Source: Brevundimonas sp. (GTDB lineage: Bacteria > Pseudomonadota > Alphaproteobacteria > Caulobacterales > Caulobacteraceae). From it: a stretch of 64,000 bases of DNA. The notes beneath the pieces were generated by a model. The model did not search any database. It was given only the letters and a program-made list of their open reading frames with translations, and was not told the DNA's origin. The position numbers and the translations under genes were made by a program. Location: positions 8,009 through 72,008 of the forward strand of contig NZ_JABAZW010000013.1 of the NCBI RefSeq assembly GCF_018608325.1, written 5' to 3'. Below are positions 8,772-49,019 of this stretch, piece after piece (within the stretch, counting starts at the first letter, position 1; the number at the start of each line of letters is the position of its first letter).

Positions 8772-9170
8772 ATGCCCGCTCTCTCCAACCCCAAGCATGA
8801 GCGGTTCGCTCAGGCCTTGGCCAAGGGCAAAAGCCAAGCCGAGGCCTACGCTGACGCTGGCTACAAGCCCAGCGAGCCGAACGCGTCTCGCCTGACAAGT
8901 AATGACAAGGTGCAGGCGCGCCTCTCAGAGCTTCAGGAACGCGCCGCAACTCGCACCGAGATCACGGTCGCCAGTATCACTGAACGCCTGCTCGCCATCG
9001 CCACCAAGGCTGAGAAAAGCCGGGAGGCTCCGATGCTTCAGGCCGCACGAGCCAGCCTCATGGACGCTGCGAAGCTGAATGGCCTCGTCGTCGACAAGTC
9101 ATCGATCGACGCCCGGGTTACAACGCCCAAGACGCTGAACGACTTCTATGGCGGCGAGAGCGACGCTTAA
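8772..9170 (+). CDS. Terminase small subunit
   Basis: N-terminal HTH typical of Terminase_2-type TerS (NPKHERFAQALAKGKSQAEAYADAGYKPS..NASRL). It sits immediately upstream of, and overlaps, the large terminase gene. Confidence 0.8.
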   Translation: MPALSNPKHERFAQALAKGKSQAEAYADAGYKPSEPNASRLTSNDKVQARLSELQERAATRTEITVASITERLLAIATKAEKSREAPMLQAARASLMDAAKLNGLVVDKSSIDARVTTPKTLNDFYGGESDA

Positions 9171-10539
9171 CCCGGCGCTTCGGGATTTCTGGCGCACACC
9201 CGCCCGCAACAGGGTTCTGAAGGGCGGCCGGTCTTCATCGAAGAGCTGGGACGCAGCAGGGTTCGCGATCTTCCTCGCGGCGAACTATCGGGTTCGGTTC
9301 CTCTGCACCCGCCAGTTCCAGAACAAGATCGAGGAGAGCGTCTACACGCTCCTCAAGATCCAGATCGAACGCTTTGGCCTGAAGGCCGAGTTCACGATCC
9401 TGAACAACCGGATCGTCCACAACACGACCGGGTCAGAGTTCATCTTCTACGGCCTGTGGCGCCACATCGACGAGATCAAGTCGCTCGAGAACATCGACGT
9501 GTGCTGGATCGAAGAGGCCCACAACCTCACCAAGGCGCAGTGGGAAATCCTTGAGCCGACCGTTCGGAAAGACGGCTCGCAGTTCTGGATCATCTTCAAC
9601 CCACGCTTGGTGACGGACTTCGTTTATCGGCGCTTCGTCACGAACACGCCACCTGACACCGTCGTCAGGACGATCAACTACACCGACAACCCCTTCCTCT
9701 CGCCTACGATCCTGAAGGTGATCGAAGCCAAAAAGGCGGAGGACGAAGAAGAGTATCGCCACACCTACCTCGGCGAGCCTCGGGAAGACGACGACGCGGT
9801 CATCATCAAGCGCTCGTGGATCCAGGCAGCGATCAACGCGCGGAGTGTGCTTGGACTGCCTGCGTCGGGACGGCGCCGCATCGGTTTCGACGTTGCTGAC
9901 GGCGGCGATGACAAATGCGCCACGGTCGAGGCATGCGGGATCGAAGCTGTCCGGGTCGATGAATGGAAGGCCGGTGAGGACGAACTTCTCAAGTCGGCGT
10001 CTCGCGTTCACGTCCAGGCCGTCGAGAGCGGTGCCGAGATCGACTACGACAGCATCGGCGTCGGGGCCTTTGCAGGCGCCCATTTCGCCAGCCTGAATGA
10101 ACAGAAGGCTGCGCAGGTCGCCTATCACAAGTTCAACGCCTCGGGCGCGATCCTGAACCCCAAGGCTCGGATCGACCCAAAGGACCCGAAGAGCCCGCTC
10201 AATGCGGACTTCTACCTCAACCTCAAGGCTCAGGCGTGGTGGGAAGTGGCGGCCCGGTTCCGCAACACCTTCAACGCGGTCAACCGGGGCATGCAGTTCG
10301 ACGAGGGCGAGTTGATCTCGATCTCTCCCGACTGCGATCACCTCGACACCCTGATCGATGAGCTTTCGACGCCACGGCGCGACTACGACGGGAGCGGCAA
10401 GGTGAAGGTTGAAAGCAAAAAGGACCTGGCCAAGCGGGACATTCCGTCGCCGAACAAGGCTGATGCGTTCGTGATGGCGTTTGCCCAGCGCGAGGCTGGC
10501 TCCACCGTCGCCATGTTCCTGAAGAGCAGGCACCGCTGA
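9148..10539 (+). CDS. Terminase large subunit (PBSX-like family)
   Basis: Walker A-like VLKGGRSSSKS, then FLCTRQFQNKIEESVY..IDVCWIEEAHNL..FWIIFNP, and a C-terminal nuclease region. Confidence 0.95.
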   Translation: MAARATLNPALRDFWRTPARNRVLKGGRSSSKSWDAAGFAIFLAANYRVRFLCTRQFQNKIEESVYTLLKIQIERFGLKAEFTILNNRIVHNTTGSEFIFYGLWRHIDEIKSLENIDVCWIEEAHNLTKAQWEILEPTVRKDGSQFWIIFNPRLVTDFVYRRFVTNTPPDTVVRTINYTDNPFLSPTILKVIEAKKAEDEEEYRHTYLGEPREDDDAVIIKRSWIQAAINARSVLGLPASGRRRIGFDVADGGDDKCATVEACGIEAVRVDEWKAGEDELLKSASRVHVQAVESGAEIDYDSIGVGAFAGAHFASLNEQKAAQVAYHKFNASGAILNPKARIDPKDPKSPLNADFYLNLKAQAWWEVAARFRNTFNAVNRGMQFDEGELISISPDCDHLDTLIDELSTPRRDYDGSGKVKVESKKDLAKRDIPSPNKADAFVMAFAQREAGSTVAMFLKSRHR

Positions 10540-11927
10540 TGAGCGCCCGCCATATGCTCGTGAACCGCGCCGTCCGCACGCTGCAGGCCATGTTCCCCGG
10601 CTTCGGGTTCGGCAGCCAGAAGCACAACCACGCGGCGGACTTCGGCTATCCCGACCAGATCACGTTCAACGAGGCCTACGACGCCTACTGCCGCAACCCT
10701 CTGGCCCATGCCGCTGTCGAGAAGACGGTCGGCAAGACCTGGGAGGACAACCCCTTCCTCCAAGAGTTCCAGCGGGACGGGACCGAGAAGGGCGACCAGG
10801 GCGAAACCAAGGGCGAAGCAGCCATCCGCCAACGGTTCGCCGATCTGCGCGTCTGGCAACATCTCGCCGAGTGCGACCGGCGTGGCCTCGTCGGCGGCTA
10901 TTCCGGCCTGATCCTGCGCCTTGCCGACAACAAGCAGCTACGGGAGTCGGTTGACCGGGTTCCGGGTGGTCTGGACGGTCTGGTCGAGGTCATCCCGGCA
11001 TGGGAAGGCCAGCTCACAGTCAACGAGTGGGACCAAGACGAACGCTCGCCCACCTACGGTCAACCGAAGATGTACGCCTTCGCGGAATCGGCGGTCGGCG
11101 ACGCCAAGCAGCCCCGCCAGTTCAGCATCCACCCCGACCGGGTCATCATCTGGTCGCGCGACGGCACGCTGAACGGTCGCTCAGCTCTTGAGCCCGGCTA
11201 CAACGCCCTGCTCGACCTGGAGAAGATCAGGGGCGGCGGCGGCGAAGGCTTCTGGAAGAACGCCAAGTCCGGTCTCAGCCTGGAGATCGACAAGGACGCC
11301 AAGATCGAGAACATGGCCCAGGCCATGAGTGTCCCGGTCACGGAAGTGGTCGACAAGATCGACGAGCAGGTCGAGGGCTTCAACAAGGGCTTCGACAAGT
11401 CGCTGCTGCTCCAGGGCATCAAGGCGACGCCCGTGCAGGTCACCCTGCCGTCGCCTGAGCATTTCTTCGGCGTCGCGCTTCAGTCGTTCGCTGCGTCCTG
11501 GCTGATCCCGCTGAAAATCCTCGTCGGCTCCCAAACCGGAGAGCGCGCCTCGACTGAGGACAGCGAGGAATGGGCCAAGGTCAACATGGGGCGCCGCACC
11601 AATCAGGCGATCCCGGCCATCATGTCGTTCGTAAACCGGCTGGAGCGCTTCGGCATCCTGCCCGCCAAGGACTGGCACCTCGATTGGTCGGACCTCACTG
11701 AGGCTTCCATGGGCGAGAAGATCGAACGCGCCTCCAAGATGGCCGACATCAACCAGAAGATGGGTGATGAGGTCGTGTTCACCGGCGACGACATCCGCGG
11801 CGTTGTCGGCATGGAGCCGCTGAGCGACGCTGAGAAGTTCCGTGACGAGCCCTCAGATGACGATGAGGCTGACGCCCTCGGCGCACCGAAGCCCGCCCCC
11901 AAGGCCGATCCGGCAGACGCGGCCTAG
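10539..11927 (+). CDS. Portal protein (DUF1073-type)
   Basis: 462 aa, directly after TerL (ATGA overlap), with an acidic C-terminal tail. The call rests on size, position and my recollection of the family. Confidence 0.85.
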   Translation: MSARHMLVNRAVRTLQAMFPGFGFGSQKHNHAADFGYPDQITFNEAYDAYCRNPLAHAAVEKTVGKTWEDNPFLQEFQRDGTEKGDQGETKGEAAIRQRFADLRVWQHLAECDRRGLVGGYSGLILRLADNKQLRESVDRVPGGLDGLVEVIPAWEGQLTVNEWDQDERSPTYGQPKMYAFAESAVGDAKQPRQFSIHPDRVIIWSRDGTLNGRSALEPGYNALLDLEKIRGGGGEGFWKNAKSGLSLEIDKDAKIENMAQAMSVPVTEVVDKIDEQVEGFNKGFDKSLLLQGIKATPVQVTLPSPEHFFGVALQSFAASWLIPLKILVGSQTGERASTEDSEEWAKVNMGRRTNQAIPAIMSFVNRLERFGILPAKDWHLDWSDLTEASMGEKIERASKMADINQKMGDEVVFTGDDIRGVVGMEPLSDAEKFRDEPSDDDEADALGAPKPAPKADPADAA

Positions 11928-20550: not shown

Positions 20551-20578
20551 AGGCTCGCTTCGGCGGGCCTTTTTCTTT
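20551..20578 (+). terminator. Intrinsic terminator (UUCG tetraloop), copy 1 of a duplicated hairpin
   Basis: AGGCTCGC-TTCG-GCGGGCCT followed by TTTTCTTT. It ends 10 nt before the tape measure ATG. Confidence 0.7.
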
Positions 20579-20588
20579 GGAGGTCACC

Positions 20589-23500
20589 ATGGGTGATCTG
20601 GCAGTCCTTGGCCTTCGCATCGAGAGCCAAGAGGTTGAAGCGGCGAACCGTCGCCTCGACAGCTTCACGAGCTCGGCAGACGGCGCCCAAAGGGCAACCG
20701 ATCTCTTGGGAACAGGATCGGACAAAGCTCACAGCGCGATTGCGCAGTTGATGGCCTCCATCGATCGCACCACCAAGGAAATGCTGGAGCTCCAGCGGGC
20801 CCAGCGACTGGCCACCGGGGCAGCAGCGGATCAAACGGGTGCGACCGCTGCTCTGACCAAGGCGACAGCCGACCTCAACGCCCAGATGGCCCAAGCATCA
20901 ACCTCGCACCTGCGGTTCGGCTCTTCGTTCAAGACGACGCAGGATGGGATGGGGGGCGCTGCCGCTGCAGCCGGGAACTTCGGCAACGCCATCGAACAAG
21001 CCGACGCTCATGTTGCAGCGTACCTAGCCAGCATGGCCTCGGGGGACAAAACCCACAAGTCCGCCGCTAAGTCCCAGGCTGAAGTCACCAAAGGAGCGAA
21101 AGACCTCGGAGCGGCTCTTGGCCGAATGGCCGGTGACGCCGTGACGGGGCGAGCATCACTAGATGGCCTGGCCACCAATGGTGAGCGCGCTGGTCGGGCG
21201 CTATGGAGCATGGGTGGACGCGCCGCTCTGCTTGGCGGAATTCTGACCGGCGTAATCGTTACAGTAGGATTGCTCGCCAAAGCATTCCGCGATGGCGAAC
21301 GAGACTCCAATAAGTTCGCCAATGCCATTGCCATCACAGGCAACTACGCCGGCATCACCACGGCCCAGTACGAGACCATGGTGAAGGCTGTGCAGGGCGG
21401 CGCAAACAGCGGATTTGGTACGGCTAGGCAGACTCTTTTGGGGTTGGTTTCAACTGGCAAGTTCACCAGCGAGACGATTCAATACCTCAGCCAGGACATC
21501 ATCAAACTCGCGCGCTTCACAGGCCAGTCAACGACCCAAATGTCCGGCTATTTTGCTGAAATGGGCGACAAGGTCGGAGACTTCGCCGTAAAATTTAACA
21601 GCAGCTACCACATGCTCACGCTGGCACAGATTGAGCACATCCAGTTGCTCGAAAGCCAGGGCAAGACGACAGAGGCGCGGCTTGAACTGGCTATCGCCAT
21701 TCACAAGAGGCTCGGTGAGATCGGCCCCGAGAATCTTGGCTATCTTGAGCGGGCCTGGAGAGGCGTAGGCAGCGCGATTTCGTGGGCCTGGGAGCAACTA
21801 AAGGGCTTCGGTCGTGATTCTGGGATTGAAGCTCAAATTGACCGGATAAACGGGGCTCTCGCTGCAAACGAAAAGAAGATCGGCGTTTCGCCTGCTTTTA
21901 CCCAGAGGCTATTAGCCGAGAGGGCCGCGCTGCAGGCAACACTGGACCAAAACAAAGCCGCCAGCGACACGGCCCGCGTCCAGCAGGAGGGCGTTGACGC
22001 AGCGGAGCGCCTACGGACGACTTGGGCCGGCATGGGCGACAACGTCGCTCGGGCGCGCACTGAAATCGCCAAGTACCGCGCTGACATTGATGCCGTCCGG
22101 CAAGCCAATCCCAACAGCCACAACATTCCGTCTGCCGCTCAACAGGCGGCAGCTGAAGCGGCGATCATGAAGAAATACACCCCCGAAGCCACCGCGGCGG
22201 CAAACAGGGCAGCTAGCGCCGCCCGAAGCGCTGCTGCTGCGGCAGAGCGTCGAGCTGAGTCCTTGGCGCGCGAACTAGAAGGAATGAGGCAGACCGCACG
22301 GGCCAACCATGATCTTGCCGCAGCCTATGGCGTTTCCGATGTCGAGGCGCTGAAGGCTGCTGCTTCAGCAGAGGCAGTAGGCCGTGCCATCAGGCGCCAG
22401 GGAGAGGTCTCGGCCTTTGTGGCGGCCCAGCTTGAGTTGAACGCCTCCAAGCTGGCGGCATCATCGGCGCAACAGGCATCAGATCTTCGGTTCGCCGCCG
22501 AGGGCCAGGAGCGCATGAACGCGGCAGTCGCCGCTGGTACGACCACGACGCAGGAAGCCACTGAGCTACTTTCTCTGGAGGCGCACCTACGCCCGTTGAT
22601 AGCGGCTGCTGCTGCCGTCGAGGGAGGTGCCAAGGCCGACCTGCTCCGCCAGATCGAGGCTGTAACGGCCGCGACGAAGCGGATGAATGCTGCGACGCGC
22701 GAAGCGTCGATCATCCAGGCTCAAACCAACAACCGCGACCGCCTCACCGTCCTGCAGTTGGAACGAGACCTCGTCGGCGCCAATAACATCGAGCGCGCCC
22801 GCCAACTAGCGATGCTGGAAGAAGAAATCCGGCTCAGGAACCAATACGGCAAGGACTTCATCAACTCGTCGAAAGGCCAAGGCCTGATCAACGATGCGGG
22901 CAACAACGCCGCATTCGGAGAGCAGACCCAGCGTGACGTGGCTCGGTATAATCTCGCCCTGGTGGAGCAACTCGATCTGCTGCGCCAGATCGACGACCAG
23001 ACCCGCAGCGCCGCTCAGGGCATGGCCGATTCCTTCGGCAGCGCAGGGCGAGCTGTAGGAGATTTGGCCGTCTCGATGACCTCCTACCAATCACGGCTAG
23101 AGGAAATCCGGGTCGCCCGTGAACAGATGTCGCGCGAAGGCACGCTGAACAGCCAGCGCGAGGCGATGTTCGCCCGCGACGCAGCGCAAGCCCAGATTCA
23201 GTCCTACGGCGACATGATGGGCGCGGCGAAAGGCTTCTTCCGAGAAGGCTCCGATGGATTCAAAATCCTGCAGGCCGCCGAGCAGGGCTACCGCATCTTC
23301 CAGTTCGCAATGGCCCTGCAATCCATGGCGCTCACCGGACAAGAGACCGCCTTCACCGTAGGGCAGAACCTGATCCGGTCGGCCAGCCACGGGGTTGTCG
23401 CTGTTGCTCGTGCACTGGCCTCCCTTCCCTTCCCGCTGAACCTCGCCGCTGGCGCCGCAACCGTCGCCGCTCTGGCGGCCATCGGCGTCAAGATCGCGGG

Positions 23501-23789
23501 CAAGTCGGGTGGAGGTGGAGCAGGCACGAATGCCGTCGAAGACTCGGTCAGCACAGCTCAGGGCTACGCCGAAACCGCCGACCAAGCCCGAGCCAGCGCG
23601 GCTCAGGCTGTGGCCACTCAGGTCAAGGTCCAGATCGAACTGAACGACCCGATGTTCAAGGCGCGGGTCCAGCAGGAAGCTGTTGGCGTCGCCGCCCCCA
23701 TGGTCGCCGCTGCCGCTGCTGGAACCAAACGCGACGTGATGGACACCTTGAAGAACCAGCAAGTCGGTAACCGGAGGGCTATGGTCTGA
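20589..23789 (+). CDS. Tail tape measure protein
   Basis: 1066 aa, Ala/Gln/Arg-rich and helical, with an internal hydrophobic segment, in the canonical position. The ATG at 20589 follows GGAGG. Confidence 0.9.
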   Translation: MGDLAVLGLRIESQEVEAANRRLDSFTSSADGAQRATDLLGTGSDKAHSAIAQLMASIDRTTKEMLELQRAQRLATGAAADQTGATAALTKATADLNAQMAQASTSHLRFGSSFKTTQDGMGGAAAAAGNFGNAIEQADAHVAAYLASMASGDKTHKSAAKSQAEVTKGAKDLGAALGRMAGDAVTGRASLDGLATNGERAGRALWSMGGRAALLGGILTGVIVTVGLLAKAFRDGERDSNKFANAIAITGNYAGITTAQYETMVKAVQGGANSGFGTARQTLLGLVSTGKFTSETIQYLSQDIIKLARFTGQSTTQMSGYFAEMGDKVGDFAVKFNSSYHMLTLAQIEHIQLLESQGKTTEARLELAIAIHKRLGEIGPENLGYLERAWRGVGSAISWAWEQLKGFGRDSGIEAQIDRINGALAANEKKIGVSPAFTQRLLAERAALQATLDQNKAASDTARVQQEGVDAAERLRTTWAGMGDNVARARTEIAKYRADIDAVRQANPNSHNIPSAAQQAAAEAAIMKKYTPEATAAANRAASAARSAAAAAERRAESLARELEGMRQTARANHDLAAAYGVSDVEALKAAASAEAVGRAIRRQGEVSAFVAAQLELNASKLAASSAQQASDLRFAAEGQERMNAAVAAGTTTTQEATELLSLEAHLRPLIAAAAAVEGGAKADLLRQIEAVTAATKRMNAATREASIIQAQTNNRDRLTVLQLERDLVGANNIERARQLAMLEEEIRLRNQYGKDFINSSKGQGLINDAGNNAAFGEQTQRDVARYNLALVEQLDLLRQIDDQTRSAAQGMADSFGSAGRAVGDLAVSMTSYQSRLEEIRVAREQMSREGTLNSQREAMFARDAAQAQIQSYGDMMGAAKGFFREGSDGFKILQAAEQGYRIFQFAMALQSMALTGQETAFTVGQNLIRSASHGVVAVARALASLPFPLNLAAGAATVAALAAIGVKIAGKSGGGGAGTNAVEDSVSTAQGYAETADQARASAAQAVATQVKVQIELNDPMFKARVQQEAVGVAAPMVAAAAAGTKRDVMDTLKNQQVGNRRAMV

Positions 23790-34253: not shown

Positions 34254-34955
34254 TCAGTTGAGGCTATGCAAAGCTCCGTCAGGCAACGGGCGTTGCAGGG
34301 CCTTCGCCTCGGCCCATGGCGCTGTCATCCAGGCCTCGAACTCGTCTGGCTCGGTCAGGATCACCGGCATGGCCTTGGGGTGGACCGCCTTCACCGGCTC
34401 GCTGGGATCGGTCGTCAGGAACGCCATGAGGTCGATCGTCTCCTTGCCGGTCTTGATCTTCCGAACCCCGGTCCAGCCCGACAGGTGGATGCCCGCGAAG
34501 AAGGCCAGCGGTTCGTCGCCCGGCAGACTGAACCACACCGGCTTGTATTTGCCCTCCGCATCCCGCCCTGGTTCGCTGAAGGCCGTGAATGGGACCAGAC
34601 AGCGGTTGGCAGGCTCTAGCCACGGCTTCCAGTGCGACGAGGTCGTGTTGCGGACGTTCGTCGTTCCGCTGTCCGGCTCCACCTCCAGCAGGGCTGGGAA
34701 ATCCACGTCCTTGCCCTTGGCGCGTAGCTTGTCGGCCCGCTTGGTTGCGGCGTCGAAGATCGCTTTCTTGGACGACGGCATGCCCCAGCGCGCCAGCGCC
34801 AGCTCTCGGACGCCGTCAGATCCTACACGGACGATGGGCGCGGCATAGTCGGGATAGATGTCGCCCGGCGCCAGGTTTCCGACCGTTGACCGCATAGCCT
34901 TCGACAGGTCCATGATCGCCTGAGGGCCGCTGCGCTGTCTGTAGAGATTGCACAT
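34254..34955 (-). CDS. SOS-response-associated peptidase (SRAP/YedK-HMCES family) abasic-site processing protein
   Basis: The N-terminal MCN (catalytic Cys2), together with its length and internal motifs, is typical of the SRAP family. Confidence 0.85.
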   Translation of the reverse strand: MCNLYRQRSGPQAIMDLSKAMRSTVGNLAPGDIYPDYAAPIVRVGSDGVRELALARWGMPSSKKAIFDAATKRADKLRAKGKDVDFPALLEVEPDSGTTNVRNTTSSHWKPWLEPANRCLVPFTAFSEPGRDAEGKYKPVWFSLPGDEPLAFFAGIHLSGWTGVRKIKTGKETIDLMAFLTTDPSEPVKAVHPKAMPVILTEPDEFEAWMTAPWAEAKALQRPLPDGALHSLN

Positions 34956-35567: not shown

Positions 35568-36785
35568 TCAGGCCCTCAGGTGGTGGACGTTGGAGGCCGG
35601 CGTGGCTCCAGTGCAGTGATCAGCCCAGGCGTTCATGAGGCCGGCCCTCTTTTCCAGTGCGTCAGATCGCCGATAGGCACGCTCCACCGCATTTCCAATC
35701 TGATGGGCTAAGGCCTCTTCGATCAGTTCACGCGGGTATTGAGTGCAATCCCCCGCCCAATCTCTGAACGTCGAGCGAAATCCGTGCACAGTTACGCTCT
35801 CTGAGCAATGCAGCCGCAAAGCCTTGGATGCCGCAACATCTGTGAGCGGCTTTCGGCGACCGCCAGAGAAAATGAATTCTCCGCGGGCTTCCTTCGGGAT
35901 TCTATCAAGAACCGCTATGGCCGCTGACGACAGGGGGACGCGATGTTCCTTCTTGGCCTTCATGCGTTCAGGCGGAATGGTCCATATCTTTCCAGAGATC
36001 TCGGACCAGCGTGCTCCCCTCACCTCACCAGATCGACAGGCTGTCAGGATCACAAACCGGAGTGCCAATGCTGAGACGCTGTCCAGCGATTCCAGCTTGG
36101 TGATCAGCGCCGGGACGTTGCTGTAATCAAGTGCGGCATGGTGGACCTTTTGTCGCTTTCCGCCAGACAGCAGGGCTGACAGATGCCCCTTCCAACGTGC
36201 TGGGTTTTCTCCCTCACGAAGTCCCCGCACCTTTGCTGCATCAAGAACGCGCTCGATCCTCCCGCGTATGCGCTGGGCTGTCTCCGGCAGTTCGTTCCAG
36301 ATTGGCTGCAACGCCGAAAGCACCATCTCCGTATCAACGGTTGCGACATCCGCCTTCCAGATTCTCGCAGCGTGCTGCTGGAGAGAGGCTTCCCACTGCG
36401 GTCGCTGCTTCGGTGACTTCCATCCACGCTCAAGTTCGTCCAGCAGCTTACCCGCTACCTGTTCGAAGGTTTGCCCCTGGGGAGCGGCTTTCGTCGCATT
36501 GCGTAGAGCGATGGGGTCGCGGCCATCCTCAACGTCCTGACGCGCCATGCCTGCTTTCTCACGAGCACGGGCCAGCCCTACGGTAGCAAGGCTACCCAGG
36601 CCCATTTCTCTACGGCGTCCGTGATGGAAGAAGATGAAGACCCAACTCCGCCCGCCAGCCTGATCGACGCGCAGGTAGAGGCCGCTGCCATCGGCGTGCA
36701 TGCCGGGCGGCTTCGTGGATAGGCCACGGGTAGTCAATCTGTTGGTGGTTGTCGCCACGCTTCCTCCAGAACGAAAACGGAACAT
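35568..36785 (-). CDS. int: Tyrosine integrase (P4-like, with an N-terminal arm-binding domain)
   Basis: DGSGLYLRV..GRSWVFIFF N-terminal domain. The catalytic region is ..ACRSGEVRGARW..HGFRSTFRDWAGD..ALAH..AYRRSD. Confidence 0.92.
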   Translation of the reverse strand: MFRFRSGGSVATTTNRLTTRGLSTKPPGMHADGSGLYLRVDQAGGRSWVFIFFHHGRRREMGLGSLATVGLARAREKAGMARQDVEDGRDPIALRNATKAAPQGQTFEQVAGKLLDELERGWKSPKQRPQWEASLQQHAARIWKADVATVDTEMVLSALQPIWNELPETAQRIRGRIERVLDAAKVRGLREGENPARWKGHLSALLSGGKRQKVHHAALDYSNVPALITKLESLDSVSALALRFVILTACRSGEVRGARWSEISGKIWTIPPERMKAKKEHRVPLSSAAIAVLDRIPKEARGEFIFSGGRRKPLTDVAASKALRLHCSESVTVHGFRSTFRDWAGDCTQYPRELIEEALAHQIGNAVERAYRRSDALEKRAGLMNAWADHCTGATPASNVHHLRA

Positions 36786-44771: not shown

Positions 44772-45434
44772 ATGGATTCCCTGTTGCAAGCCGTGGGCGA
44801 CTTCATCGCCCGCAATCATATGTGGGCCGGCGTTCTTCTTGGCCTCATCACCTTTGTCGAATCCCTGGCGGTGATCGGCGCCTTCGTGCCCGCGACCGGT
44901 CTGCTGGTGGCGGCGGGCGGTCTGATCGCAGCAGGCGTGCTGGACCCCGCCAACGTCATCATCGGCTGCATCATCGGCGCCGTTCTGGGCGACGCCGTCA
45001 GCTATTGGGCGGGCCGTCGTCTGGGCATCCGCTTCCTGCAGCGCCCGATGTTCAAGCCGCACCGCCGCCGCATCGCCTGGACGCGCCTGTACTGCCGTCG
45101 CTACGGCGTGCTGTCGATCTTCGTCGGGCGCTTCTTCGGCCCTCTGCGCGCCTTCGTGCCGCTGACGCTGGGGATGCTGCGGATGCGCCAGCGGGCGTTC
45201 CAGTTCGGCAATGTCACCTCGGGCATCGTCTGGGTGCTGGCAATGCTGGCGCCGGGCTATCTGGCGGCGAAGGGTCTGGCGCAGCTGGAGCTGCTGAGCG
45301 AAGCCCACGGGCCCACCCTGCTGATCGGCGCCATCGCCGTGGCCATTCTGGCGGTCGCCATCATCTATCGCGCGGTGAAGTCCCGCATGACCCGCAAGTC
45401 GGCCATCCTCAAGGGCGCGCTGGAGAGCCGCTGA
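44772..45434 (+). CDS. DedA-family membrane protein
   Basis: ..FVESLAVIGAFVPATGLLVAAG..LGDAVSYWAGRRLG..RYGVLSIFVGRF.. DedA/SNARE-associated motifs. Confidence 0.85.
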   Translation: MDSLLQAVGDFIARNHMWAGVLLGLITFVESLAVIGAFVPATGLLVAAGGLIAAGVLDPANVIIGCIIGAVLGDAVSYWAGRRLGIRFLQRPMFKPHRRRIAWTRLYCRRYGVLSIFVGRFFGPLRAFVPLTLGMLRMRQRAFQFGNVTSGIVWVLAMLAPGYLAAKGLAQLELLSEAHGPTLLIGAIAVAILAVAIIYRAVKSRMTRKSAILKGALESR

Positions 45435-46287
45435 TCGCTTCTTCTTCGGGCCGGTGCACGATCGACACCAGCACCACCGAAATGATCATCAGCAGGAACC
45501 ACGCCCCCAGCTTGCTCAGGGACACCATCTCCCATCCGTCCGTCTGCCCCGGATAGGTCCAGGCCCGGCTCAGCGTGCCCAGGTTCTCGGCGAACCAGAT
45601 GAACAGGGCCACCAGCCCATAACCCAGCAGCAGCGGCATCGACCTGCGCCTGCGGTCCGCCGTGAAATAGAACCAGCCCCGCCCGAACAGCAGCGCCGTC
45701 GCCACGAACAGCCCCAGCCGCACGTCAGGCAGCCAGTGGTGCGCAAAGAAATTCACGTATATGGCCGCCGCCAGCACCCAGGTCGTCCATAGCGGCGGAT
45801 AGCGCCTGACCCGGATGTGGAAGATGCGCTGCACCCGCGCGATGTAGCTGCCGACCGCTGCATACATGAAGCCCGAGAACAGCGGCACCGCCCCGATCCT
45901 GAGCAGGCTGTCCTCGGGATAGACCCACGACCCGTGCGCCGTCTTGAACAGCTCCATGATCGTGCCGGCGATGTGGAACAGGAAGATGACCTTGGCCTCC
46001 TCCATGCTCTCCAGCCTGAAGGCCAGCATCGCCGCCTGAATGACCAGCGCCCCGACCACCAGAACGTCATAGCGCGACACCGCCGCTCCATCCGGCCAAA
46101 GCATCCAGGTGCCCATGATCAGCACCAGCATCAGCCCGCCAAACAGACAGGCCCACCCCTGCTTCAGCCCGAACCAGAGGAACTCATAGACGTAGCCGTT
46201 GAGGCGGGACCGATCGGCCCACGCCTCCGCACGGGTCATCAGACGGCGCCCCCACACTTCGAGCGGAAGACGGGAGAGTGAAGTCAT
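45409..46287 (-). CDS. DUF817-like integral membrane protein
   Basis: Polytopic membrane ORF. The family assignment comes from memory of the ..GLKQGWACLFGGLML.. type N-terminus. Confidence 0.65.
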   Translation of the reverse strand: MTSLSRLPLEVWGRRLMTRAEAWADRSRLNGYVYEFLWFGLKQGWACLFGGLMLVLIMGTWMLWPDGAAVSRYDVLVVGALVIQAAMLAFRLESMEEAKVIFLFHIAGTIMELFKTAHGSWVYPEDSLLRIGAVPLFSGFMYAAVGSYIARVQRIFHIRVRRYPPLWTTWVLAAAIYVNFFAHHWLPDVRLGLFVATALLFGRGWFYFTADRRRRSMPLLLGYGLVALFIWFAENLGTLSRAWTYPGQTDGWEMVSLSKLGAWFLLMIISVVLVSIVHRPEEEAISGSPARP

Positions 46288-46365
46288 GACCGTAGGCTAT
46301 GCAGAAGAACCCGGGCAATGTCAGATCAAGTTTGTCGGAGCAACCGCCCCCAAACAGGACAAATC

Positions 46366-47436
46366 CTAAAGCAGCTCCAACCTCGGGCCACTCCGCAGAT
46401 TATTGTTGCCCGCGATCATGTTGGACGCCAAAGCAAAATCGCCCGTCGCGGAAATCACCCGACGCTCAGCGTAAATCACCTGAAGCGAGTTATAGTATTC
46501 CATACTTTTAGCGTTGCTGATCAGAGGCTTTTGGTTTCGGATCGCATCCAAATCCGCCCGCAGAGCTTCAATACTCGCGCCCAAGTTCGCCCGCTCCTTT
46601 CGCAAAAGATCAGCCTCAGACCCCACCCCCAGTAGAGCAATTAGGGCTGTATTGTGGTAACTTTCTTCAGATTGCTTTAAGCCAACTTCAAGAAAATGCA
46701 CTAATGTCGGACACCAAAATGCCAATAAGAGATCAGGGGCGATAGGCAAATAAATTTCTATACCTTCGGAAGTAAGGCCCAAGCTCCCCAAAACCCCATT
46801 TTGGTTTGTATTGGCCTTAACAACTGGGTGGTCGCCTAGCAGGAAGGTGGTCCCAGGGGCCGCTCCGATCAACAGCATCATTTTGGTCGAAATGATTTTC
46901 GTGAACTCAGGAAGATTCTTGCTAGCCAAATTCATTGCGATGAATTTGACCATTTCTGGATCATCCATTCCCCGAAGTTGTGGAACCTCCTCGGGGTCAT
47001 GCCCCATGGAACGAACGCGCTCACGCATCTTCTCTGCGACGTCGATCATATTGATCCGCGTGCTCGGCCCTCGGACCTGCTGGAGCGCTACAAAGGCCAT
47101 GACCTTCACACGATCTTCCAACGTCAATCCGACCAAAGAACGGTCCTCTGCAATCCGTTTGAAAACCGGGGCTGCTTGGTCCTCGATTTTTCCGAGGCCA
47201 TCCTCCATGCAAATGATATACTTCCCGTCATTGTAACGGTTGAAATCTCGCTCATGGAGAATGTTAGCAGGTGCAGTGCGAAAGATCCGTTCTTCTTTCT
47301 TATCGAAGACATACACTTGAGGGAATTTTCCGCGACCAGCAGTCGCAAACGCGCTTTGCAACATGCAAGGCACGTAGTGCTGTCCTCGAGTCTTTAACGG
47401 TCCGTCAGGCAATGACTTTGTCTCGAAGCAGCTCAC
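46366..47436 (-). CDS. DUF4238-family protein on a low-GC islet
   Basis: The N-terminal QHYVPCMLQSAF motif is characteristic of DUF4238. It uses a GTG start. The gene and short flanks are visibly more A/T-rich than their neighbours. Confidence 0.75.
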   Translation of the reverse strand: MSCFETKSLPDGPLKTRGQHYVPCMLQSAFATAGRGKFPQVYVFDKKEERIFRTAPANILHERDFNRYNDGKYIICMEDGLGKIEDQAAPVFKRIAEDRSLVGLTLEDRVKVMAFVALQQVRGPSTRINMIDVAEKMRERVRSMGHDPEEVPQLRGMDDPEMVKFIAMNLASKNLPEFTKIISTKMMLLIGAAPGTTFLLGDHPVVKANTNQNGVLGSLGLTSEGIEIYLPIAPDLLLAFWCPTLVHFLEVGLKQSEESYHNTALIALLGVGSEADLLRKERANLGASIEALRADLDAIRNQKPLISNAKSMEYYNSLQVIYAERRVISATGDFALASNMIAGNNNLRSGPRLELL

Positions 47437-47501
47437 TTGTGAACACCATACGAACCTCCACTACTTTTATTCATTACCTGACAAGTTCCCCCGACTAAAT
47501 C

Positions 47502-47972
47502 TCACCCTCGCCCGCGATAGGTCGGCACACCTTGATCCGGCAGCCACAGCCCCTCAGGCGCCACGCCCGTCTGCCAGAAGACGTCGATGGGGATGCCGCC
47601 GCGCGGGTACCAGTAGCCGCCGATACGCAGCCATTTCGGCTGCAGCAGATCAGCCAGTTTGCGGCCAATGGCGACGGTGCAGTCCTCGTGGAAGGCGCCG
47701 TGGTTGCGGAAGCTGGTCAGGTACAGCTTCAGGCTCTTTGACTCGACCAGCCATTCGCCCGGCGCATAGTCGATGACGATGTGTGCGAAGTCGGGCTGGC
47801 CGGTCACCGGGCACAGGCTGGTGAACTCAGGCGCCGTGAACCGGGCCAGATACAGGGTGTCCGCGTGCGGGTTCGGCACCCGCTCCAGCACGGCGGTTTC
47901 AGGGCTGGTCGGGGCGGCGGTCTGGGCGCCAAGCTGGCTCAGGTTGTCGGTGTAATGCGTCATGCCCGCCAT
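47502..47972 (-). CDS. queF: NADPH-dependent 7-cyano-7-deazaguanine reductase
   Basis: ..[46 protein letters not shown].. QueF type I signature. Confidence 0.9.
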
Positions 47973-48086
47973 TTAGGCGTTCGACGCGGCAAAGAAAATC
48001 CTCAGCGTCGCACCCCGTGCGGCGCCCCATTGCCTTACCCGGCGACAGCCGGTTATCCGTAGCGAAAGAAAACCAAGGAGACGCTC

Positions 48087-49019
48087 GTGGCTATTCCCGC
48101 ATCGCTGCAAAAGGGTCTGACCCTGCCGATCATTTCGGCGCCCATGTTTCTGGTCTCTGGCCCGGACCTGGTGGTCGAGGCCTGTAATGCGGGCGTCATC
48201 GGCACCTTCCCGTCGCTGAACCAGCGCACGACCGAGGGCTATCGGGAGTGGATCCACGAGATCAAGGCGCGGCTGAAGCCGGACGCCGCCGCGTTTGGCG
48301 TCAACCACATCGTCCACCCGACCAATCCCCGTCTGATGGCGGACATGATGGTGTCGGTCGAAGAGAAGGTGCCGCTGATCATCACCTCGCTGGGCGCGGT
48401 GCGCGACGTGGTCGATGCGGTGCACGGCTATGGCGGTCAGGTCTTCCACGACATCGCCAACATCCGCCACGCCCGCAAGGCGGCCGAGGCGGGCGTCGAC
48501 GGCCTGATCCTGGTGGCCAATGGCGCGGGCGGCCACGCGGGCATCATCAACCCGTTTGCCTTGGTCAATGAGGTCCGCAGCTTCTTTGACGGCACCATCA
48601 TCCTGTCGGGCGCCCTGTCGACCGGTCAGGACGTGGCGGCGGCCCTGATGCTGGGCGCCGACTTCGCCTATATGGGCACCCGTTTCATCAACACGACTGA
48701 GGCCTTGGCGGCGCCTGCCTACAAGCAGATGATCATCGACAGCGGCTCGACCGACATCGTCCACACGCCCGCCGTGTCCGGCATCCCCGCCAACTTCATG
48801 AGCAAGTCGCTGGTCGAGAACGGCATCGACCCCAAACACCTGCCCGAGCACAAGCTGGACATGGGCGACGAGGCCAAGGCGTGGAAGACCGTCTGGTCCG
48901 CTGGGCAAGGCGCAGGCGCCATCCACGACGTCCTGCCGACCGCAGAACTGGTGGGTCGTCTGCGACAAGAGTTCGCTCAGGCAACGGAAGAATTCGCGAA
49001 GAAGACCGCCACGCGTTAA
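48087..49019 (+). CDS. Nitronate monooxygenase (NMO/2-nitropropane dioxygenase family)
   Basis: GTG start 6 nt after AAGGAG. Motifs PIISAPMFLVSGPDLV.. and GVDGLILVANGAGGH. Confidence 0.85.
   Translation: MAIPASLQKGLTLPIISAPMFLVSGPDLVVEACNAGVIGTFPSLNQRTTEGYREWIHEIKARLKPDAAAFGVNHIVHPTNPRLMADMMVSVEEKVPLIITSLGAVRDVVDAVHGYGGQVFHDIANIRHARKAAEAGVDGLILVANGAGGHAGIINPFALVNEVRSFFDGTIILSGALSTGQDVAAALMLGADFAYMGTRFINTTEALAAPAYKQMIIDSGSTDIVHTPAVSGIPANFMSKSLVENGIDPKHLPEHKLDMGDEAKAWKTVWSAGQGAGAIHDVLPTAELVGRLRQEFAQATEEFAKKTATR

Follow-up and report, generated by a model that had tools for sequence, protein, structure and literature searches.

Between two core genes of the 64-kb stretch of DNA analysed here (the window) lies a low-GC islet of 1,214 bp with one gene inside (46288..47501). 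The islet takes up the whole gap from the start codon of a DUF817 membrane protein gene (45409..46287, - strand; 292 aa; Pfam 341 bits), the left core anchor, to the stop codon of queF (47502..47972, - strand; 156 aa; Pfam QueF 108 bits), the right core anchor, which encodes 7-cyano-7-deazaguanine reductase. The gene within belongs to the DUF4238 family (46366..47436), lies on the - strand like both anchors, is separated from them by intergenic gaps of 78 and 65 nt, and encodes 356 aa when read from the GTG at 47436 or 348 aa when read from the TTG at 47412. This is the arrangement described in the original prediction, which had seen a 356-aa open reading frame with a DUF4238 signature (QHYVPCMLQSAF, residues 19–30 of the 356-aa protein), closely flanked by DUF817 and queF and more A/T-rich than both. 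The composition agrees with that description: the GC content of 46288–47501 is 0.502, whereas 1,214-nt windows across the 64 kb average 0.633 (sd 0.030), and of all 1,256 windows of this size it has the lowest value. Along the DUF4238 gene GC runs at 0.47–0.53, compared with about 0.65 on either side, and GC3 is 0.57 as against 0.85–0.87 in the neighbouring genes.

Where does translation of this gene start? Six DUF4238 homologues are exactly 348 aa long and begin with MPxGPxxxRGQHY or a similar sequence. The in-frame TTG at 47412 would yield a 348-aa product with the N-terminus MPDGPLKTRGQHY and, since both length and N-terminus agree with the six homologues, is probably the true start. The gene call in the database, of 335 aa, starts past the conserved QHY and is too short, as this motif is cut off. 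Direct reading of the sequence also reveals an out-of-frame upstream ORF of 14 codons (47405..47449, - strand), whose ATG has a strong GGAGG ribosome-binding site at 5-nt spacing and whose stop overlaps the candidate TTG start, the ORF ending 2 nt past that codon; translational coupling between this upstream ORF and the DUF4238 gene is possible, if speculative. No sigma-70-like promoter was found in the 65-nt region upstream of the DUF4238 gene, and a terminator scan around the islet returned nothing relevant on the - strand. As the three genes are co-directional and no promoter or terminator is recognisable, the DUF4238 gene could perhaps be co-transcribed with queF and DUF817. There are no tRNA genes in the 64-kb window, and an Rfam scan of 45300–48200 found no RNA family.

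A prophage occupies approximately positions 371–36785 and ends 9.6 kb from the islet. It comprises genes for the large terminase (9148–10536), the portal (10539–11924), a DUF6260 protein that is a candidate capsid by its position, the tape measure (20577–23786), a SRAP protein (34257–34955) and a tyrosine integrase (35571–36785). Between the integrase and the islet there are eight genes of native GC, encoding a GH3 glucosidase, a TetR regulator, an MFS-like transporter, a serine-acetyltransferase-like protein, a NUDIX-like protein, a nitroreductase, a VTT/DedA protein and the DUF817 protein, the MFS, acetyltransferase and NUDIX names coming from reading of the translations and not from library matches. 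Because these eight genes separate the two, the idea that the islet is part of the prophage was rejected, and the chromosomal, non-prophage context that had been proposed for the gene stands. So does the proposed absence of flanking repeats, as no direct or inverted repeats beyond chance were found at the islet edges; the accompanying statement that there was no integrase does not stand, given the one in the prophage. At the islet edges themselves there is no integrase or other recombinase.

Family membership and predicted structure

A Pfam scan, suggested as a check in the original prediction, matches the protein to DUF4238 (PF14022) over the full length of the profile with 103.3 bits at a cut-off (gathering score) of 27 bits, residues 19–331 aligning to profile positions 2–279 of 281; a scan of the genome confirmed the match. 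All family motifs are present (QHYVP, VFDK, Q..R, F.LGDxPV, GIEIYLPxSP, CP and NSLQV..AER), and every column that is invariant or near-invariant in alignments of 32 and 69 sequences is kept; in the numbering of the window protein the invariant columns are H20, D45, Q119/R122, K185, D202/P204, G220, Y229/P231, N316/Q319/V320 and F334. Comparison with a 74%-identical homologue gave a dN/dS of about 0.1 (0.11), with dS near saturation. By its full-length Pfam match, the retention of all invariant residues and the low dN/dS, the gene is intact, evolves under purifying selection and looks functional.

A word-indexed search recovered 99 relatives; searched exhaustively, 1.84 billion cluster representatives yielded 2,073 at E<=1e-3. 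Nearly all of them are 300–380 aa long, indicating a stand-alone domain. The closest (74–51% identity) come from metagenomes and from Bosea, and the 76 genome loci that could be recovered are spread over Alphaproteobacteria, Gammaproteobacteria, Acidobacteriota, Planctomycetota, Bacteroidota and others. Within the order of the host, any DUF4238 gene at all is found in 29 of 251 genomes and in 12 of 47 genera. The branch of DUF4238 to which the window gene belongs is large and patchy in its distribution. NCBIfam has no match for the window protein, and among the PHROGs phrog_29785 alone gave a match, weak and N-terminal. Ten viral contigs of IMG/VR encode distant relatives that are 27–32% identical, and tblastn of the window protein and of its homologue from IncF plasmids (see below) against 50,697 phage genomes found no relative.

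The AlphaFold (AF2) model of the window protein (pLDDT 90.1, pTM 0.88) predicts an alpha/beta protein in which N-terminal and central strands bear the QHYVP, VFDK, GDxPV and GIEIYLP motifs, a four-helix region spans residues 78–183 and NSLQV..AER lies on a C-terminal helix. Residues 243–300 form a long helical hairpin whose length varies within the family (gap fractions 0.2–0.33). In a second model (pLDDT 91.8), made for a 325-aa protein from another subfamily, the elements follow one another in the same order and the hairpin is short. Foldseek searches with both models found no match in the PDB (best E 0.089 and 0.2, TM <0.2), and a profile search of PDB sequences returned nothing below E 0.68. 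In BFVD the sole significant match is gp43 (V9IQH5) of the P2-like Stenotrophomonas phage Smp131 (E 2.7e-8, TM 0.53/0.62), a cargo gene directly after the phage integrase. The two proteins have the core motifs F..(G/S)DxPV and P(L/I)SP in common; however, gp43 has 298 aa, is 12% identical and has no PADLOC match.

The tested anti-phage protein and the neighbourhoods of homologues

Defence catalogues list a DUF4238 system under two names, Rst_DUF4238 being the DefenseFinder name of the system that PADLOC calls DUF4238-Pers. A DUF4238 protein from the P2-like prophage hotspot of E. coli, cloned as a single gene, conferred strong resistance to phage T7, its molecular function being unknown (Rousset et al. 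2022, PMC9122126), so that the single-gene anti-phage reports mentioned in the original prediction do exist, together with a PADLOC model. A survey of 2024 placed Rst_DUF4238 among the systems without a classifiable domain, and full-text searches of the literature found no mechanistic study of DUF4238 or PF14022. The further step of reading the present copy directly as the tested system is not sustained, as the PADLOC model DUF4238-Pers (PDLC03000) matches the window protein with 26.7 bits (E 8.9e-7) and only in residues 18–129, corresponding to model positions 6–114 of 309 and hence not to most of the length of the model. Of nine other members of the clade, the IncF homologue has no match to this model and the rest score 17–32 bits in the same N-terminal part. 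Because the PADLOC match is N-terminal and weak across the clade and tblastn found no phage relative, the window protein is to be placed, by its sequence, in the same Pfam family as the tested protein but on a different branch. Like Rst_DUF4238/DUF4238-Pers it is a PF14022 protein encoded by a single gene of about 300–350 codons that lacks a partner, is horizontally mobile and belongs to a family found amid defence genes. It differs in being a remote relative that sits in a chromosomal slot between two genes and not in a P2/P4-type prophage or satellite hotspot, and in its extra length-variable helical hairpin (~243–300).

What surrounds the homologues elsewhere? A 61%-identical homologue adjoins a KAP NTPase and a Gabija-like pair of OLD-TOPRIM ATPase and UvrD; a 52%-identical one has DUF3800 and PLD genes around it; and on the Agrobacterium plasmid pAt12D13a a 39.6%-identical copy adjoins a restriction endonuclease, a TrlF ATPase and an integrase. 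Full-length homologues of 30.5% identity occur on 691 plasmids, most of which come from E. coli, Klebsiella and Salmonella; 630 of the 691 are conjugative. The IncF protein WP_000138753.1 (30.5% identity over 94% of the query) is a full-length homologue with the same motifs that is likewise encoded by a single gene, but it is plasmid-borne in Enterobacteriaceae, does not have the longer hairpin and is not matched by DUF4238-Pers. The three plasmids that were inspected (L053, L135 and L136) are all IncF, and on each the homologue adjoins parMR and is encoded divergently from ppl, which is annotated as an anti-phage gene. At a further locus (L038, 1662–4036) a 51%-identical homologue starts at the last base of hipA, which itself follows an HTH gene, and HTH, hipA and DUF4238 possibly form a three-gene operon there.

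For a broader view, the three nearest ORFs on each side were taken for 23 genomic homologue loci (135 proteins, the first half of a larger neighbour set) and compared with PADLOC at 1e-8. The 135 neighbours match 156 PADLOC models, a tally to be read qualitatively since many models cover one protein and a single region served as control. The matches include DpdF, PD-Lambda-5 A/B, PDC-M41A/B, PDC-M30B, a type II methyltransferase (MTase_II), PDC-S35, PsyrT, capP, mad3/8 and RmrA, and many other neighbours are ordinary metabolic genes. The 65 other proteins of the window have no PADLOC match at 1e-8; the window locus is without known defence neighbours, and defence islands are seen at homologues elsewhere only. 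No neighbour family recurs in more than 2–3 of the 135 neighbours, which argues for a single-gene function. A partner gene or a toxin-antitoxin pair was considered and rejected, as the islet has no room for one and there is no recurrent neighbour.

Proposed function

We lean, by a modest degree, towards the reading that the window protein would be a stand-alone protein directed against phages or other mobile elements. This reading is suggested because the gene is accessory, mobile, intact and single, because one member of the family is a validated anti-phage protein, and because relatives lie amid defence genes. The Smp131 gene beside a phage integrase and the ten IMG/VR contigs also speak for it; the weak N-terminal PADLOC match, the tblastn search of phage genomes that found no relative and the many metabolic neighbours of homologues speak against it. 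How might a single protein of this size act? Since there is no recurrent partner gene, sensing and effect would both reside within one cytoplasmic chain of about 348 aa. It could be imagined that a pocket of family-invariant polar residues (H20, D45/K46, E85, Q119/R122, K185, D202, N316/Q319 and E324/R325) makes up an active site that works on nucleic acids or nucleotides in the course of infection, and that the length-variable helical hairpin (~243–300) serves as a specificity or oligomerisation module. That the protein is an enzyme, perhaps one acting on nucleic acid or nucleotides, is suggested by the invariant His, Asp, Glu, Lys, Arg, Asn and Gln residues in a predicted soluble alpha/beta protein and must be considered doubtful; on the predicted models, no fold relative lends support to an enzymatic activity.

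A distinctly less probable explanation takes the gene for accessory cargo of mobile elements that serves not phage defence but, for example, competition between elements, plasmid maintenance or addiction, or anti-defence; in the chromosome it would then be a passenger. The many conjugative plasmids that carry a full-length homologue would be consistent with such a role, as would the setting on the three inspected plasmids, where parMR adjoins the homologue and the DNA methylase and antirestriction genes of the F-type leading or maintenance region are close by, the homologue that overlaps the end of hipA, and the integrases, DUF927 proteins and transposases found among the neighbours. However, the sole family member that has been tested is anti-phage (PMC9122126), the immediate neighbour on the plasmids is the anti-phage gene ppl, chromosomal homologues adjoin Gabija, restriction and PD-Lambda-5 genes, and the islet holds no antitoxin-sized partner.

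If the stand-alone defence reading is adopted for the whole branch, its consequences reach beyond this locus. DUF4238 is among the few experimentally validated single-gene anti-phage families and has no recognisable structural relative. The branch of the window gene is large, is barely detected by current defence catalogues and is also carried in E. coli, Klebsiella and Salmonella by conjugative IncF plasmids, which are common; should it defend, defence systems are being undercounted, and there may be a new enzymatic activity to find. The locus itself adds one more member, of a divergent branch, to DUF4238 and brings no new principle. Its natural setting is tidy, and as an example it is clean, with one gene, sharp boundaries and sister species that have empty sites. 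Of greater interest are two by-products, namely the presence of the branch beside ppl on common IncF plasmids and the fact that a validated defence family has no relative of solved structure.

The queF-DUF817 slot and the origin of the islet

Both anchors are widespread in the genus. DUF817 is full-length in 32 of 36 same-genus genomes, and a 27-residue remnant is left in one more (G020:C1:2892023-2893048), where the anchor gene has been deleted except for about its last 27 codons beside queF. queF was found in 17 of the 18 genus genomes checked and is 82–98% identical across the genus. A comparison of the DUF817-queF interval in relatives, which had been proposed along with the prediction, was possible in 30 genus genomes with both anchors on one contig and revealed a variable site: nine are empty, with 5–175 nt between the anchors, and 21 are occupied by 0.6–11 kb of at least 12 different cargo types. 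The slot is plastic across the genus. In other species its cargo includes a TonB-C protein; an EAL-like protein and a BLUF-like protein (named from sequence motifs and not from library matches); a membrane protein common to two species; a RelE/HTH pair; a TonB-dependent receptor; a B12/radical-SAM enzyme; and an RsgA GTPase. In three cases (L013 in G018, L014 in G001 and L044 in G003) the cargo is a low-GC single gene. Its product has 348 aa and weak SIR2-like PADLOC matches in the first, 289 aa and a weak Mrr-like match (Mrr_cat) in the second, and 471 aa and a C-terminal MauJ domain in the third.

Variable and defence hotspots flanked by core genes have been described in the pan-genomes of E. 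coli and Pseudomonas. The queF-DUF817 slot resembles them in its conserved flanks, its species-specific cargo, the existence of empty sites and the low GC and defence-like character of some of its cargo (weak SIR2-like, weak Mrr-like, RelE/HTH). It differs in that its cargo is mostly unrelated to defence, usually consists of one or two genes and comes without an integrase. A dedicated defence hotspot was therefore rejected as a description of the slot, and since most cargo elsewhere is non-defence, the slot gives no defence label to the DUF4238 gene.

How did the gene come to lie there? It is single-copy in its genome, and no orthologue was found in 36 other species of the genus. The best other DUF4238 matches in the genus are 24–28% identical and lie at other positions, and none of the homologues of 51–74% identity lies between queF and DUF817, their contexts being unrelated. 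Together with the low GC, these observations make horizontal acquisition, which the original prediction had indicated, well supported, the gene having entered a plastic slot; the finding that was to count against it, conservation in synteny across the genus at native GC, did not appear. Compared with the empty sites of relatives, the islet replaces the entire intergenic region up to both gene ends, and no sequence common to the islet and the empty-site intergenic regions of relatives was detected. The gene would most likely have arrived by recombination via the conserved flanks or through decay of an element that had integrated at the 3' end of queF.

In the sister species G015 (L047) the queF 3' end is perfectly repeated over 44 nt in direct orientation (2077–2120 and 2937–2980), and the two copies bracket a low-GC (0.52) remnant of about 0.8 kb with small ORFs only, an att-like signature. 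Site-specific integration at the queF 3' end therefore occurs in the genus. In the window there is no remnant copy of the queF 3' end and no att-like repeat. The repeats of the sister species lend some weight to an improbable alternative, in which an integrative element at the queF 3' end would have decayed and left the DUF4238 gene behind, still intact but silent and of no more use to this host. The sister-species remnant shows that elements integrate and decay here, and the 65-nt upstream region without a sigma-70-like promoter would fit a silent gene. On the other hand, the ORF is intact with every invariant residue kept, dN/dS is about 0.1, read-through transcription is plausible for a gene co-directional between queF and DUF817 with no terminator between, and the window has no att-like repeat left. 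That the gene is native, inherited vertically and merely odd in composition, as its strand and tight spacing in common with its neighbours might suggest, is effectively refuted on sequence grounds and has next to no probability, as none of the 36 other genus genomes searched has it, queF directly adjoins DUF817 in nine relatives, GC3 is 0.57 as against about 0.86 in the neighbours and the nearest homologues sit in unrelated contexts.

Horizontal acquisition and the stand-alone defence reading can be combined into a wider proposal, offered tentatively and with the chances rather against it. The clade would then be a separate, widespread single-protein immune family that includes the ppl-adjacent gene of IncF plasmids and whose fold, and hence chemistry, is without a solved relative. 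At the same time the gap between queF and DUF817 would be a recombinase-free docking slot in which one-gene cassettes (DUF4238, SIR2-like, Mrr-like, RelE/HTH) are swapped by species of the genus through homologous recombination in the flanks and which is occasionally seeded by elements integrating at the queF 3' end.

Other features were observed around queF in relatives. Two loci (L009 and L012) have a GC-rich palindrome (CCTTCTCCCCTTGCGGGAGAAGG) in the empty queF-DUF817 site, and in L012 two inverted copies of it bracket an insert of about 130 nt with inner inverted repeats, which has a REP- or MITE-like look. In two more (L023 and L028) queF and DUF817 are 5–6 nt apart and an insert of about 0.9 kb lies between queF and the nitronate monooxygenase gene, so that both sides of queF are plastic.
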